Virus record (IMG/VR): IMGVR_UViG_2695420487_000019
DNA length: 5,898 nucleotides
Strand: one strand, 5' to 3'
DNA from: a virus
Taxonomy: Duplodnaviria; Heunggongvirae; Uroviricota; Caudoviricetes
Part shown: piece after piece, positions 1-5,898 of the stretch
How positions within the stretch are numbered: position 1 is the first letter of the stretch
Layout: the number at the start of each line of letters is the position of its first letter
The notes under the pieces: generated by a model
Told to the model about the DNA's origin: nothing
The model's database searches: none
The model's input: the letters and a program-made list of their open reading frames with translations, nothing else
Made by a program: the position numbers and the translations under genes

Positions 1-316
1 TATAATAAACTTACTTTTTTATCATTTTTCCACTTTAACAACATTTTGCTCCACTTTTCCACGACCAAACAACTTGAAATCTGGTTAAAATAACACGCAA
101 CACTATTCTTCTTCCTTGAGTCCGCCCGGAACTCGAAAAACAAACCGAGTTAAAGCCATTTTTCACAAAATCGATTTTGGGTCTCACCAAAGTTACGGGG
201 TTGCATACGCATTCGTTTATTTTCGAACGTGTACATACAAATATGCACAAAAATAATCAAAATTATTTTCTGAGATGCATTATGATATGAAAACCAATTT
301 CGTATAGAGTCTCACT

Positions 317-907
317 ATGTCTCGAATTTTTGCTTACTGTCGGATATCAACGCTGGATCAGACCACCGAAAATCAACGCCGGGAAATCGAAAGTGCAGGT
401 TTTAAAATCAAACCTCAGCAAATAATCGAAGAACACATTAGCGGCTCAGCAGCAACCAGTGAGCGTCCTGGTTTTAACCGGTTGCTTGCTCGCCTGAAAT
501 GTGGTGATCAATTGATTGTGACAAAACTGGATCGCCTTGGTTGTAATGCAATGGATATCAGGAAAACAGTGGAACAACTGACCGAAACAGGTATCAGAGT
601 GCATTGCTTAGCATTGGGGGGCATTGACCTGACCAGTCCAACAGGAAAAATGATGATGCACGTAATTTCAGCAGTCGCTGAATTTGAACGAGACCTTTTA
701 CTTGAACGCACTCATTCCGGGATAGTAAGAGCCCGCGGCGCAGGGAAACGTTTTGGTCGACCACCTGTGTTAAATGAAGAACAGAAACAGGTGGTATTCG
801 AACGAATTAAGTCAGGTGTAAGTATAAGTGCCATTGCCCGGGAATTCAAAACCTCGCGGCAAACCATTTTAAGAGCCAAAGCAAAACTTCAGACACCTGA
901 CATATAA
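317..907 (+). CDS. pinQ: Serine recombinase, DNA invertase of the Pin/Gin/Cin/Hin family (196 aa)
   Basis: Intact ORF, ATG at 317 and TAA at 905-907. N-terminus [15 protein letters not shown] has the resolvase/invertase catalytic motif (Y-x-R-I-S-T-x-x-Q, presumptive nucleophile Ser11). C-terminus [21 protein letters not shown] is a helix-turn-helix. The protein matches PinQ/PinR of the K-12 Qin/Rac prophages from memory. Symbol chosen from locus context (noh-cos, ynfO, ydfO, gnsB neighbours); pinR-type cannot be excluded without a search. Confidence 0.9.
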
Positions 908-1004
908 AAAATAATCTCGGTGTGAGATGCTTTACGTCTTCCAAGCCCCCTTCCTTGCCGTAAATGGAGAGATACATCTAATTATAGAATTTATATGTTT
1001 TACC

Positions 1005-1580
1005 CTACGGCAGTGCTGGCCATTCAATATCCGGTGCAGTTGATGTATCAACACGGTTCAGCAACACCCGATACTTTTTCCAGGCTTCCAGCAACAAGGT
1101 TTCTTCCTCCGTTGCGATCTCCAGATCCACAGCATCCTGAAGCGGCGCTATATGCTCACTGGCTATCTGCATCAGGCTGTTTTTTGTTTCTTCCGCCTCC
1201 CGGATCCGGAACAGTTTTTCTGCTTCCGTATCCTTCACCCAGGCTGTGCCGTTCCACTTCTGATATTCCCCTCCCGGCGATAACCAGGTAACATTTTCCG
1301 GTAACGGACCGAGTTCAGAAATAAATAACGCGTCGCCGGAAGCCACGTCATAAACCGTTTTACCCCGATGATCTTCAACGAGATGCCACGATGCCTCATC
1401 ACTGTTGAAAACAGCCACGAAGCCTGCCGGAATATCTGGCGGTGCAATATCGGTACTGTTTGCTGGCAGACCTGTATGAGGCGGAATATATGCGTCACCT
1501 TCACCAATAAATTCATTAGTTCCGGCCAGCAGATTATAAATTTTTATGGTCCGTGGTTGTTCACTCATTCTGAATGCCAT
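1005..1580 (-). CDS. tfaQ: Tail fibre assembly protein (Tfa, 191 aa)
   Basis: Intact minus-strand ORF beginning [24 protein letters not shown], the N-terminus I recall for lambdoid Tfa chaperones (TfaQ/TfaR/TfaE). Its start codon overlaps the stop of the upstream fibre-tip ORF in a TAATG arrangement at 1578-1582, indicating translational coupling. Convergent with pin. Confidence 0.85.
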
Positions 1581-1888
1581 TACGCAAGCCTCACAATATA
1601 GTTAAATGCGATGTTTTTGACGGTGTTTTCCGCGTTACCAGCAGCGTTAACGGTGATGGTATGTCCATGTGAACCAATCGCAACGGAGTGCGTATGAGCA
1701 CCAATACCGACAGTATGTGCGTGTGCACCTGCGCTTGCAGCAGTACCCGATACAGAGTGCGTATGAGCGCCTGCAGAAGAAGTGTTAACACTGTATTTAG
1801 AATAATCAGGTGATCCACTTCCCGGAGCACCACTGGAACCACCTGAAACAAATGTCATCGAATGGGTATGTGCACCGGCTGTCCCCAT
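1580..1888 (-). pseudogene. stfQ: Side tail fibre C-terminal tip fragment with repeated His-x-His motifs, joined out of frame to the upstream J-like fragment
   Basis: Translation carries five HxH units (GAHTHS three times, GAHAHT once, SHGHT once), as in the iron-coordinating distal tip of T4 gp37-type fibres. The frame is open upstream to 1984 but that stretch overlaps real J-frame coding sequence, so the Met at 1888 is not a natural start. The position between J and tfa matches lambda stf. The symbol follows locus context and is uncertain. Confidence 0.65.
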
Positions 1889-3135
1889 GCATTTACCGCC
1901 CGGACTGTCAGCCTGTAATTTCCCAGCGCCAGCTGCGTGAAGCGATATGTGGTTTCCGTCGTCCGGGCCGTGCTGACCAACCGCTCACTGCCGTCGTCCG
2001 CTGCCACGGTCAGGCGAAGCATAAAGCTCACCCCCTTCACCACCTTCGGCGTGTCCCAGCGCGCCAGCACCTGGTATTCCCCGCTGTCTGCGGTGACTTC
2101 TGCGGTCAGGTGCTGAACTGCTGGCGGCGTGACACCATTCACCGTGCCGCTCTGGTCACCGTCAAAGTGCGCCCCGTTATCCACGATGGCTTCTTTCTCC
2201 GGTACATGCTGCACGGCAGTGATGGCATACGTACCGTCATCGTTCTCACGGATACTCACACAGCGGAACAGGCGCTGACGCAGCGTCGGCAGCTTCAGCC
2301 CCCACACGCTGTACTCGGCAACGCCGTCAGGAACCCGGCTCACTTTCACCTTCACGCCGTCGGTGACGGACTGGACCTCCACGCTCACCGGATTACCCTG
2401 CCCGTCAACCAGGCTTATCAGCGTGGTGCCGGAGGATGGCAGCGTGATTTCACGGTCGAGCGTCAGTGTCCGCGTCTGGCTGTTCACCGCCAGCACGCGC
2501 CCGCCGATGCTGATCCCCGCATAGTCATCATCACAGATTTCAATGACATCACCTGGTACATGGCGAAGCCCTTCGGCACCCACGCTGAAGTCCACGGTCT
2601 GCGTTTCCAGCAGTTCCGTTTTAATCAGCCACAGCCCGGCTCGGTGCGCCTGCCCCCGCCTGGTACAGCCAAAGGCATCCATCTTCGTGACGTTACGACC
2701 GTAACGGGCAATGGCCTGCGTGTCCTCCACAAGCTCTGTCGCCGTCTCCCAGCCGTTATCCGGGTCAATCCAGTTCACCTCAACGGCATTATGGCGGTCC
2801 TTCAGGGCGCTGAAGCTGTAGCGGAACGGCGCGCCATCATCCGGCATCACCACATTACTGCGGTTATAGGTCCACACCTTATCTGATGGTCGGTCCTGCA
2901 CGAACGTCAGCGTCTGCCCGTTCCATACCGGCATACAGCGCATCGCCGAGCAGAAATCACTGAGAACATCCCACGCCTTACGCTGTGTGGTCAGCCAGGC
3001 ATTACAGGTGATGCGCGGCTCCGTGCCGCCAAAACCGTCCGGCACCGACTGGTCGCAACACTGGCCGATGACATACAGCGCCCATTTATCCACATCTGCC
3101 GCACCAAGACGTTTACCCATGCCGTAGCGCGGGTG
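1855..3135 (-). pseudogene. Internal fragment of a lambda J-like tail tip / host specificity gene (about 425 codons), missing its 5' end, with the 3' receptor-binding part replaced out of frame by the fibre tip
   Basis: The ORF 1855..3222 translation from about residue 30 (RYGMGKRLGAADVDKWALY...) to its end (...[23 protein letters not shown]) matches the central region and fibronectin-III-like repeats of lambda gpJ as I recall it. The first 29 codons of the listed ORF lie on Nu1 DNA in another frame and are spurious. Terminates 7 codons after AWGQ, at the junction with the fibre tip. Confidence 0.8.
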
Positions 3136-3370
3136 GCTGGAGATCTGTCTCGCTGGCCTGCCGCAGTTCTTCAACTTCCCGGCGCAGCTTTTCGTTCTCA
3201 ATTTCAGCATCCCTTTCGGCATACCATTTTATGACGGCGGCAGAATCATAAAGCACCTCATTACCCTTGCCACCGCCTCGCAGAACGGGCATTCCCTGTT
3301 CCTGCCAGTTCTGAATGGTACGGATACTCGCACCGAAAATGTCAGCCAGCTGCTTTTTGTTGACTTCCAT
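3113..3370 (-). pseudogene. nohA: 5' fragment of a lambda Nu1-type terminase small subunit gene (N-terminal winged-helix cosB-binding domain, about 78 codons, then 6 foreign codons and a stop)
   Basis: Translation MEVNKKQLADIFGASIRTIQNWQEQGMPVLRGGGKGNEVLYDSAAVIKWYAERDAEIENEKLRREVEELRQASETDLQP matches lambda gpNu1 residues 1 to about 78 almost exactly (from memory), then diverges to PALRHG-stop where the J fragment begins. It sits the same distance downstream of cosN as in lambda. Confidence 0.85.
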
Positions 3371-3595
3371 TGTTCATTCCACGGACAAAAACAGAGAAAG
3401 GAAACGACAAAGGCCAAAAAGCCCGCTTTCAGCACCTGTCGTTTCCTTTCTTTTCAGGGGGTATTTTAAATAAAAACATTAAGTTACGACGAAGAAGAAC
3501 GGAAACACCTTAAACCGGAAAATTTTCATAAATAGCGAAAACCCGCGAGGTCGCCGCCCCGTAACCTGTCGGATCACCGGAAAGGACCCGTAAAG
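3371..3595 (-). other. Lambda-type cohesive end site (cosQ-cosN-cosB), apparently intact
   Basis: The reverse complement of 3371-3559 reads GGGCGGCGACCTCGCGGGTTTTCGCTATTTATGAAAATTTTCCGGTTTAAGGTGTTTCCGTTCTTCTTCGTCGTAACTT...GAAAGGAAACGACAGGTGCTGAAAGCGGGC...TGTCGTTTCCTTTCTCTGTTTTTGTCCGTGGAATGAACA, near-identical to my memory of the lambda left end with its R3, I1, R2 and R1 elements. The reverse complement of 3560-3590 (GGGTCCTTTCCGGTGATCCGACAGGTTACG) matches the lambda right end and cosQ region. Confidence 0.85.
3548..3559 (-). other. cosN 12-nt cohesive-end core (GGGCGGCGACCT on the minus strand)
   Basis: An exact match to the lambda 12-nt 5' overhang sequence is seen directly at these coordinates. 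Confidence 0.85.
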
Positions 3596-3758
3596 TGATA
3601 ATGATTATCATCTACATATCACAACGTGCGTGGAGGCCATCAAACCACGTCAAATAATCAATTATGACGCAGGTATCGTATTAATTGATCTGCATCAACT
3701 TAACGTAAAAACAACTTCAGACAATACAAATCAGCGACACTGAATACGGGGCAACCTC

Positions 3759-3992
3759 ATGTCTACGAAGAACAGAACCCGCAGAACAACAACCCGCAAC
3801 ATCCGCTTTCCTAACCAAATGATTGAACAAATTAACATCGCTCTTGAGCAAAAAGGGTCCGGGAATTTCTCAGCCTGGGTCATTGAAGCCTGCCGCCGGA
3901 GACTGTGCTCAGAAAAAAGAGTTTCTTCTGAAGCAAACAAAGAAAAGAGTGACATTACTGAATTGCTCAGAAAACAGGTCAGACCAGATTGA
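3759..3992 (+). CDS. ynfO: Small ribbon-helix-helix-like DNA-binding protein (77 aa), YnfO/YlcI-type prophage moron protein
   Basis: ORF with ATG at 3759 and TGA at 3990-3992; a G-rich stretch (GGGG) lies about 6 nt upstream of the ATG. The pattern basic arm, beta strand (NIRFP), helix (NQMIEQINIALEQKG), turn (SG), helix (NFSAWVIEACRRRL) parallels Arc/MetJ-type RHH repressors. Size and position (plus strand just past noh and cos) match ynfO of Qin as I recall it. Confidence 0.7.
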   Translation: MSTKNRTRRTTTRNIRFPNQMIEQINIALEQKGSGNFSAWVIEACRRRLCSEKRVSSEANKEKSDITELLRKQVRPD

Positions 3993-4049
3993 AGCAATTT
4001 AGATAATCGTGCAGACTACGCCCCCTCATATCACATGGAAGGTTTATCT

Positions 4050-4460
4050 ATGGATCAGGTAGTCATTTTTAAACAAATATTTGATAAAGTTCGAAACGAT
4101 TTAAACTATCAATGGTTTTATTCTGAGCTAAAACATCACAATGTCTCACATTACATTTACTATTTAGCCACAGAGAATGTTCATATTGTATTAAAAAATG
4201 ATAATACAGTGTTATTAAAGGGCCTAAAAAACATTGTGTCTGTCAAATTTTCAAAGGATAGGCATCTTATAGAAACGACCTCTAATAAGCTGAAATCCAG
4301 AGAGATCACATTTCAGGAATACAGAAGAAACCTTGCTAAAGCAGGAGTTTTTCGGTGGGTTACAAATATCCACGAACAAAAAAGATATTACTATACCTTT
4401 GATAATTCATTACTATTTACTGAAAGCATCCAGAAAACTACACAGATCTTACCACGCTAA
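4050..4460 (+). CDS. ydfO: Uncharacterised prophage protein, YdfO/YbcV-like (DUF1398-type), about 136 aa; the alternative upstream ATG at 4035 would give 141 aa
   Basis: ORF ending TAA at 4458-4460. The ATG at 4050 has a good Shine-Dalgarno sequence (GGAAGG, 4037-4042) 7 nt upstream; the ATG at 4035 has none. Markedly AT-rich (about 28% GC in a hand-counted 60-nt line, 4081-4140). Assignment to the YdfO family rests on size, position and partial sequence memory only. Confidence 0.65.
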
Positions 4461-4469
4461 ACCATAACG

Positions 4470-4496
4470 TCCGGCTTCTCTCACTCCTGAGCCGGA
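4470..4496 (+). terminator. Possible hairpin downstream of the ydfO-like gene (7-bp stem TCCGGCT / AGCCGGA, 13-nt loop)
   Basis: Inverted repeat seen directly; followed by a T-containing stretch (TTGGTTTAAT) but not a clean U-run, so a weak terminator candidate. Confidence 0.3.
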
Positions 4497-4554
4497 CTGC
4501 ATTGGTTTAATAAAAACCATCAACAATTGTGATTTAGATATTCGGAACCATTCA

Positions 4555-4586
4555 AATATAACAAAACCCCGTAAAAACGAGGTTTA
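4555..4586 (-). terminator. Candidate rho-independent terminator downstream of the gnsB-like gene
   Basis: On the minus strand, AAACCTCGT-TTTT-ACGGGGTTT forms a 9-bp stem with one mismatch and a 4-nt loop, followed by TTTTGTTATATTT. It lies 25-55 nt past the gnsB stop (4612-4614). Confidence 0.4.
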
Positions 4587-4611
4587 TGGATAAATTTTAT
4601 TATTGAATACA

Positions 4612-4770
4612 TCAGATTAAATTAATCTTGACATCATAGCTTTCAAGACCCGTCATTTTTTCCCGTGCGGTAAACTGAATACTGGTAACTTCTTTCCCGG
4701 TCTTTTTCTTAAGTTCAATAATTTTTTTTGTTATATATTCAGAAATATCTGCTTCTGCTTTTGTTTTTAA
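4612..4770 (-). pseudogene. gnsB: GnsA/GnsB-family small protein gene, 5'-truncated by IS5 at about codon 5; the remaining 52 codons are fused in frame to 30 codons read from the IS5 end
   Basis: The C-terminal 52 residues LKTKAEADISEYITKKIIELKKKTGKEVTSIQFTAREKMTGLESYDVKINLI align without gaps to residues 6-57 of the 57-aa GnsA/GnsB proteins as I recall them (...TGKEVSEIRFTAREKMTGLESYDVKIKIM). The listed ORF 4612..4860 continues upstream across the IS5 terminus, where the codons L-F-A-P-S are encoded by the IS5 inverted repeat. Confidence 0.75.

Positions 4771-5898
<1,128 letters not shown>

Follow-up and report, generated by a model that had tools for sequence, protein, structure and literature searches.

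Analysis of the window, by which we mean the whole 5898-bp stretch of DNA under study, revealed a lambda-type cos site beside a truncated gene for the small terminase subunit, Nu1. The reading that we favor, with a probability of roughly 0.8, is that this cos is a leftover from the decay of the Qin prophage, that its sequence remains intact, that the cut-off Nu1 resulted from a deletion into the tail-tip gene J, and that the site is idle alone. The window encodes no terminase, and for this reason its cos would be inert on its own. The feature is already known in kind, as it represents the Qin cos and nohA region in the form of a lineage-specific deletion variant.

Genomic context of the window

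A sequence search identified the chromosome of E. coli SCPM-O-B-12142 as a 99.9% match to the whole window. The annotated genes of this match run in the order ydfK, pinQ, tfaQ, a tail-fiber pseudogene, a host-specificity protein J pseudogene, a terminase small subunit pseudogene, ynfO, ydfO, a GnsA/GnsB-family gene and an IS5-family transposase. Beyond the transposase lie ynfN, cspI, rzpQ, rrrQ and essD, with relBE and hokD further along. This annotated context was compared with the MG1655 feature 'cryptic prophage Qin'. Both the position beside ydfJ and the gene set (ydfK-pinQ-tfaQ, then ynfO-ydfO-gnsB-cspI-rzpQ-rrrQ, then relBE-hokD) are those of Qin. This identifies the locus as Qin, a defective lambdoid prophage, at the same chromosomal place as Qin of K-12. 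A BLAST comparison against the complete lambda genome resolved the window into a mosaic of lambda-like pieces (Table 1).

Table 1 Features of the window and their lambda counterparts. Positions are those of the whole 5898-bp window, with the strand in parentheses where assigned; scores are relative to lambda unless otherwise given.
Feature	Window position	Lambda position	Match and source
tfa and end of stf	1015-1729	22538-21824	93.8%, BLAST
Internal fragment of tail-tip gene J	1875..3136 (-)	16347-17608	92.6%, BLAST; Pfam Phage-tail_3, Ig_J
Nu1' remnant ORF, 85 aa	3113..3370 (-)		Nu1 codons 1-79 (3134-3370), six out-of-frame codons, stop
cosN right side to Nu1'	3134-3559	427-1	BLAST
cosB R1	3395..3410 (-)	151-166	15/16; C151T, the first base
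cosB R2, inverted relative to R3 and R1	3436..3451 (-)	109-124	16/16
I1 region with IHF site	3452..3494 (-)	66-108	41/43; A73G, T102C
cosB R3, TerS binding site	3495..3510 (-)	50-65	15/16; C53T at window 3507
I2 spacer, cosN to cosB	3511..3542 (-)	18-49	32/32; sequence from PMC4856287
cosN, ~22-bp nicking site	3543..3564 (-)		22/22
Cohesive-end 12-nt sequence GGGCGGCGACCT	3548-3559 (-)		Single exact match in window; 0.02 expected by chance
cos left side	3560-3921	48502-48141	BLAST
cosQ heptamer GGGTCCT, packaging-termination signal	3583..3589 (-)	48473-48479	7/7; role from PMC4669245
Fur-box cluster	3591..3615 (.)	48447-48471	16/19 match to Fur consensus; ends 2 bp from cosQ
FNR site TTAAGTTGATGCAGATCAATTAAT	3680..3703 (-)	48359-48382	Exact match to K-12 FNR-bound site
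ynfO (DUF3950), divergent neighbor of cos	3759..3992 (+)		Annotation; Pfam PF13132
ydfO homologue	3976-4479	47527-47023	84%, BLAST

Organization of the cos site

Window positions 3800-3134 (minus strand) were aligned with lambda 48262-48502 followed by 1-427. The two sequences share 98.8% identity over 667 bp, with eight substitutions and a 1-bp deletion, and the aligned lambda segments meet at the circularized cos junction, where bp 48502 is directly followed by bp 1. The cosQ heptamer and the 16-bp inverted repeat of R2 and R1 were located directly in the lambda sequence, while published descriptions give cosN as about 22 bp and I2 as about bp 18-50 (PMC4856287). The first-pass annotation of this DNA had described cosQ, cosN and a cosB with R3, I1, R2 and R1 elements on the minus strand, with few substitutions relative to lambda, and both the overall identity and the element-by-element scores bear this description out. 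All of the cos elements lie within positions 3371-3600, the interval that it had singled out for alignment with lambda, and the cosN core (22/22) and the cosN-R3 spacing are unaltered.

The conserved cosQ site measures 7 bp, and selection acts on the left half of cosN (PMC4669245). The spacer between cosQ and cosN is identical to that of lambda at 18 of 18 positions, so the lambda distance is kept. The distance between cosN and cosB is critical (PMC9026076), and the complete identity of I2 means that the cosN-R3 spacing is preserved. Within cosB, R3 comprises bp 50-65, of which bp 55-63 are contacted by TerS, and the R3 changes with known effects on packaging map to bp 56, 58 and 59 (PMC9026076). 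The nine positions of this contact core all agree with lambda in the window, and C53T lies outside it. The best match to the IHF consensus WATCAANNNNTTR falls at lambda bp 79-91 (window 3469-3481) and is unchanged, with A73G and T102C both outside it. The spacer between R2 and R1 carries an A136G substitution and is 1 bp shorter than in lambda. The marks of a lambda-type cos are present, namely cosN with its cohesive end, cosQ at the lambda distance and the cosB arrangement and spacing. Judged by sequence, the cos is intact and of lambda packaging specificity, and a terminase of that specificity should recognize and cut it.

Variation in cosB

A different reading of the cosB changes is that the cos is a functionally dead fossil, in which C53T, C151T, the two I1-region changes and the shorter spacer abolish terminase recognition. 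Single transitions at conserved base pairs of the R sequences do give packaging defects, with those in R3 being the worst (PMC9026076). In addition, the exact window allele occurs in no sequenced phage; a search for it among sequenced phages returned a best identity of 98.1%. With no exact phage match to rely on, the variants were compared one by one in an alignment of 12 cos sequences (the window, lambda, K-12 Qin, K-12 DLP12 and eight deposited lambdoid phage genomes). Each of the five window cosB differences is present in at least one deposited phage genome. All five states (T53, G73, C102, T151, and G136 with the shorter spacer) are combined in phage 2H10, whose only mismatch to the window across bp 1-190 is a spacer position, bp 134. 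T53 is also present in an Stx1 phage and in DLP12, T151 is common to the window and 2H10, and subsets of the window variants were found in Kati, PhiR34_1, PhiR42_1, PhiR47_2 and an Stx1 phage. Reference lambda alone among the 12 aligned sequences has the longer R2-R1 spacer. The shorter form occurs in both Kati and Chlobot, which are environmental isolates according to their records, and Kati additionally carries G73. To the left of cosN, the cosQ side of the window is identical to lambda, while the cosB side is 2H10-like.

2H10 was taken to be viable because its genome is deposited and classified as that of a phage; a literature search for a paper on its isolation as a plaque-forming phage returned none. 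The R3 positions at which defects are known (bp 56, 58 and 59) fall within the bp 55-63 core and are unchanged here, as is the distance from cosN to R3, the shorter spacer is the form present in every aligned sequence but reference lambda, and the full set of changes co-occurs in 2H10. We consequently regard a functionally dead cos as quite unlikely and retain the reading of an intact leftover.

The Nu1 remnant

Nu1 homology extends from the ATG at window 3370 to position 3134 (lambda bp 427), with 78 of the 79 codons agreeing with lambda and the remaining one giving A75T. The three substitutions in these 237 bp, two of them synonymous, provide no power for a selection test. Nu1' meets J' at a microhomology of about 3 bp (CCA), with the J side beginning at lambda bp 16347, and a deletion would have removed Nu1 beyond codon 79 and fused the remainder to the interior of J. 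The join is out of frame and therefore adds six foreign codons and a stop, resulting in an ORF of 85 aa, which PGAP annotates as a terminase small subunit pseudogene. The earlier estimate of about 78 surviving codons and an 84-residue product was essentially right.

The surviving part had also been described as the winged-helix DNA-binding domain, and profile and structure matches agree. The stub matches positions 1-81 of the 164-position PF07471 (Phage_Nu1) profile, PDB 1J9I (residues 1-68) and chain B of 6HN7, the latter being TerS 1-98 complexed with RppC (PMC6739421). Both the recognition helix (residues 17-24) and the wing (residues 31-39) are intact, and all of the published dimer-interface residues (I11, F12, G13, S43, A44, I47 and A51) are kept. 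Residues 1-79 thus hold the TerS winged-helix DNA-binding and dimerization domain. In TerS the central domain serves oligomerization and the C-terminal domain binds TerL (PMC9026076). The central domain and the TerL-binding domain (the last ~40 residues) are both missing from the remnant, whose ORF ends at residue 85. Lacking these domains, the stub cannot act as a terminase subunit, and from its predicted domain content the Nu1 remnant is not a functional TerS. A promoter scan detected none directly upstream of Nu1'; the only promoter-like match lies inside the ORF, and the count of such matches is at chance level. The likeliest view of the 85-aa stub is that of a pseudogene product with very little expression.

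Prevalence and erosion of the locus

A lambda-type cos was detected in 4595 of 5426 complete E. coli genomes, at a median of two places per genome. Since most E. coli genomes have such leftover sites, the window cos is real but ordinary. The exact Nu1'::J' junction is present in 58 of the 5426 genomes (~1%). The ynfO-ydfO module was found in 2153 genomes, with a contiguous cos in 1978 of them; about 8% are without one.

At least five different structures occur at the Qin locus. Strain 1332KP retains a full 181-aa nohA followed by A', L, K, I and J', while NCTC9040 has Nu1, A', W and portal'. In K-12, Nu1 extends to bp 719 and is fused to stf; in the window it extends to bp 427 and is fused to J. 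In NCTC9066, ynfO abuts a portal fragment, both cos and Nu1 have been lost, and no cosN match was found. The proposal that cos is always kept in Qin remnants is ruled out by this last strain. Neither the K-12 nor the window structure can be derived from the other, and the two therefore arose by separate deletions in a more complete ancestor. This pattern of repeated, independent losses, at least one of them taking cos with it, fits neutral prophage erosion rather than selected retention and shows no hint of preservation of either cos or the stub. The four remnants with any Nu1 sequence (1332KP, NCTC9040, K-12 and the window) all keep cos and at least 79 Nu1 codons, making weak selection on the stretch of cos and the Nu1 5' end possible.

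Alternative roles of the retained stretch

The first-pass annotation had raised the idea that the residual Nu1 domain could bind cosB and either help or hinder. It is conceivable that the Nu1 stub, with or without the chromosomal cos, has been kept as an anti-phage decoy, in which TerS heterodimers or occupancy of cosB would poison packaging and cos would act as a terminase sink. There is a precedent in the Rpp proteins of PICIs, which block lambda, mimic the TerS DNA-binding domain and heterodimerize with TerS (PMC6739421). The dimer-interface residues, recognition helix and wing are all present in the stub, TerS 1-98 is soluble and competent for Rpp interaction (PMC6739421; PDB 6HN7), and the DNA-binding domain persists in all four Nu1-bearing remnants. 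However, pairing of the stub with TerS would, in contrast to an Rpp heterodimer, restore exactly the DNA-binding domain of the phage itself. Expression is a further obstacle: the junction is out of frame, the ORF is a pseudogene according to PGAP, no promoter-like site was found directly upstream of it, and expression would need read-through of the Qin late operon, an operon broken in this strain by the IS5-family insertion. The rarity of the junction (58 of 5426 genomes) and the complete loss of cos and Nu1 in NCTC9066 also argue against retention of a decoy. Were the stub to interfere with packaging it would constitute a simple new anti-phage decoy, but nothing found points there, and we hold this reading to be improbable, a shade more so than a dead cos.

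A host-side role could also be sought in the Fur-box cluster and FNR site that lie between cos and ynfO (Table 1). Gel-shift work showed Fur binding to the K-12 nohA counterpart of the Fur-box cluster (PMC2189734), and the K-12 FNR site was bound by FNR in ChIP-chip and EMSA (PMC1802558). Given these adjacent sites, part of the cos region may have a host-side regulatory role. The broader proposal is that the stretch persists as host regulatory DNA for the divergent ynfO-ydfO or for Nu1', unrelated to packaging, and the binding of the K-12 counterparts in vitro by Fur and FNR and in vivo by FNR (PMC2189734, PMC1802558) speaks in its favor. Both sites are on the cosQ side, however, which leaves the intact cosB and the Nu1 5' end unexplained, and both are also present in phage lambda and are thus phage heritage. 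Deletion of fnr had only a marginal effect on cloned low-activity promoters (PMC1802558), and NCTC9066 keeps ynfO-ydfO although its deletion starts just upstream of the ynfO start. We consider it very improbable that such a function accounts for the stretch. Equally remote is a combined scheme in which the Nu1 1-79 stub would be an Rpp-like dominant-negative and cos a terminase sink, together forming a domesticated anti-packaging defense with Fur and FNR tying expression or cos access to iron and oxygen.

Predicted consequences of cos cleavage

If the window cos is an intact leftover, as we propose, its cleavage would depend on a terminase supplied by a superinfecting lambda or phi80-type phage or by an induced resident prophage. 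TerS would bind R3, R2 and R1 with IHF bending I1, after which TerL would nick cosN. Packaging would start at cosN, pass cosB and Nu1' and continue toward decreasing window positions, and the 50 kb of source chromosome that follow in this direction hold ydfJ, ydfI, dcp, dgcZ, marRAB, the lsr operon and hipBA. Terminase would stay on the cosB end and translocate toward Nu1'-J'-tfaQ-pinQ-ydfK and then ydfJ, dcp, marRAB, lsr and hipBA.

The first-pass annotation had suggested that a superinfecting lambdoid phage could package flanking host DNA from this site, and had looked to transducing particles as evidence. Lambda initiates packaging at cosN and cosB and terminates it with cosQ and cosN at a downstream cos (PMC4669245). 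A terminase of the cos type makes no second cut without a second cos, and the protruding DNA blocks tail attachment (PMC6687093). A search of the 50 kb downstream detected no second cosN; five matches with two mismatches were found, against 3.5 +/- 1.9 expected by chance. The second cos at 38-51 kb downstream that mature particles need is thus absent. With no second cos within a headful, normal termination is impossible and mature transducing particles are not expected. The suggestion survives at most in the form of defective single-cos (docL-type) heads, which would be the products of packaging from this site, while the expectation of transducing particles does not stand. Lambda itself has reportedly been seen to package prophage and host DNA from a single cos, yielding docL particles (Little & Gottesman 1971; Sternberg & Weisberg 1975). 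A 2026 paper on capsid-packaged DNA contained nothing relevant on lambda packaging from chromosomal cos sites, and searches for direct work on the Qin cos, lambda qin111 or nohA turned up none, with Espion et al. 1983 encountered only in reference lists.

The choice of helper also narrows. Phage 21 had been named as a candidate alongside lambda and phi80, but lambda and phage 21 discriminate between their cosB sites by more than 1000-fold (PMC4669245); phage 21 would therefore not recognize the window cosB and drops out as a helper. The premise that this cos has no cognate terminase holds within the window. It probably holds as well in BUCT2930, in which the cos and junction queries each matched a single place, and it is less secure in the other strains with the window cos allele, which have 2-5 matching places.

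With a helper, the likelier outcomes are a double-strand break, phage-prophage recombination and abortive single-cos packaging. After cleavage the cosQ-side end would be free of terminase and open to processing by Red or RecBCD, and an active-orientation Chi lies 4.3 kb from this end, inside the Qin lysis genes. The cos would then serve as a hotspot for exchange between an infecting phage and Qin. De Paepe et al. mapped roughly half of the lambda-DLP12 recombinant junctions to positions adjoining cos and proposed that the exchange is stimulated by cos breaks in phage and prophage alike (PMC3945230). By analogy, recombination would be the more likely biological consequence of cutting the window cos.

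Significance

With 4595 of 5426 complete genomes carrying one, leftover lambda-type cos sites are close to universal in E. coli and, as with DLP12, are plausible places for terminase breaks and gene capture by infecting lambdoid phages. For the equivalent DLP12 cos, a role as terminase target and hotspot of recombination has already been considered in the literature (PMC3945230). The window adds a well-resolved example and an independent deletion series at one locus, tracing the erosion of Qin. Beyond careful annotation, its importance is small.

Comparison with known systems

The cos of phage lambda (cosQ-cosN-I2-cosB[R3-I1-R2-R1], followed by Nu1) provides a close structural model, as the order, orientation and spacing of its sub-sites are those of the window. 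The window site differs by its five cosB changes, all of which are outside known contact positions, and by being chromosomal rather than part of a replicating concatemer, with no full terminase genes adjacent to it.

In docL packaging, as in the process outlined above, the start would be at one chromosomal cos and packaging would proceed unidirectionally into host DNA without a terminal cos. The docL experiments, however, concerned an induced, replicating, excision-defective lambda prophage with its own terminase, while here a helper would have to act in trans on an unamplified locus.

PICIs such as EcCICFT073 resemble the window in being chromosomal elements with a lambda-like cosQ and cosN and an adjoining short TerS-like winged-helix protein, Rpp (PMC6739421, PMC9026076). 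They nevertheless have their own distinct cosB, their Rpp has a C-terminal coiled-coil dimerization domain, and they excise and replicate. In the window the cosB is lambda's own and the protein is a truncated TerS, and the Qin integrase is a pseudogene in the K-12 annotation. The remnant has the DNA-binding domain of an Rpp-type redirector without the C-terminal domain, and from this predicted make-up and the lambda cosB beside it, it is not an Rpp.

Qin of K-12 (the nohA-ynfO-ydfO region) shares both the locus and the flanking genes with the window, with 99.3% identity across window 3134-4771. Its Nu1 extends to lambda bp 719 (176 of 181 codons), is fused to stf and is accompanied by no J fragment. 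The window, in contrast, has only 79 Nu1 codons, fused to an internal fragment of J, and its strain carries the IS5-family insertion beside gnsB.

The cos and nohD of DLP12 in K-12 likewise place a lambda-type cos in a defective prophage, and T53, G73, C102 and the shorter spacer are common to both sites. Terminase breaks have been suggested to occur at the DLP12 cos, which is a demonstrated hotspot of lambda-prophage recombination (PMC3945230). DLP12 has a full-length nohD and 3.3 kb of lambda homology spanning cos, whereas the homology to the right of cos in the window ends after 427 bp.

Deletion structures and insertion at the Qin locus

Comparison of window 1772-3133 with the Qin-locus sequences of other strains (L005 5077-6132, L017, L018 and L019) demonstrated that Qin, at a single chromosomal locus, exists in at least five distinct deletion structures, represented by 1332KP, NCTC9040, K-12, the window and NCTC9066. 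This deletion series could serve to work out which parts of the prophage were lost first and which later. The longest open reading frame in the window, encoding 455 amino acids, spans the junction between the small-terminase remnant (Nu1') and the internal J fragment; its ATG start codon lies within Nu1 but belongs to a different reading frame, which continues into J. This reading frame is almost certainly an accidental chimera. An IS5-family insertion is located between cos/Nu1' and the Qin late genes. The window is covered to 80% or more in only 30 genomes, and many others match positions 1-4771 alone.

Features in and around the cos region of the window
Feature	Window	Strand	Lambda	Remarks
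455-aa ORF	1855-3222	minus		Pfam Phage-tail_3 and Ig_J
FNR site, exact copy	3680-3703		48359-48382	TTAAGTTGATGCAGATCAATTAAT
Near-consensus Fur-box cluster	3591-3615		48447-48471	GTAGATGATAATCATTATC; 16/19 consensus match
IS5-family (ISKpn26-like) transposase gene	4918-5898, extending past window end			Insertion adjoining gnsB homologue

Reported changes in NohA and NohD

Phage-survivor colonies of K-12 have been reported to carry the 'mutations' R48K/R70L in NohA, the Qin Nu1 homologue, and K48R/L70T in NohD, its DLP12 paralogue (PMC11297538, Table 2). The changes listed there for the two paralogues are largely mirror images of one another, a pattern that looks less like new mutation than like gene conversion between the copies in Qin and DLP12, or cross-mapping of reads from one to the other. 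Residue 48 is arginine in K-12 nohA and lysine in both the window and lambda.

Chi sites and regulatory sites beside cos

For RecBCD entering the cosQ-side end left by a terminase cut at cosN, the first Chi in active orientation is found at about position 19836 of L001, a stretch of the source chromosome surrounding the window, 4276 bp past window position 3560, where it sits in rrrQ among the Qin lysis genes. Within 50 kb on the cosB side, Chi sites of opposite orientation outnumber those of active orientation by at least 8 to 2.

The FNR site, also present in phage lambda, is bound by FNR in the nohA/ydfO and nohB intergenic regions of K-12 as determined by ChIP-chip and EMSA; the cloned promoters had low activity, and deletion of fnr affected them only marginally (PMC1802558). 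The Fur-box cluster ends 2 bp from cosQ in the window. A literature search found no treatment of the consequence of Fur binding beside cosQ. The equivalent site at nohA in K-12 is retarded by Fur in gel-shift experiments, and a cluster of this kind has been predicted at nohB in DLP12 (PMC2189734). Phage lambda itself carries the same Fur-box cluster sequence.

Comparison with lambda and related cos sites

The R2-R1 spacer of reference lambda contains one extra base (lambda bp 136-137) relative to all 11 other aligned cos sequences, namely those of the window, K-12 Qin, DLP12 and eight phages. Judged from this alignment, reference lambda is the outlier in R2-R1 spacing.
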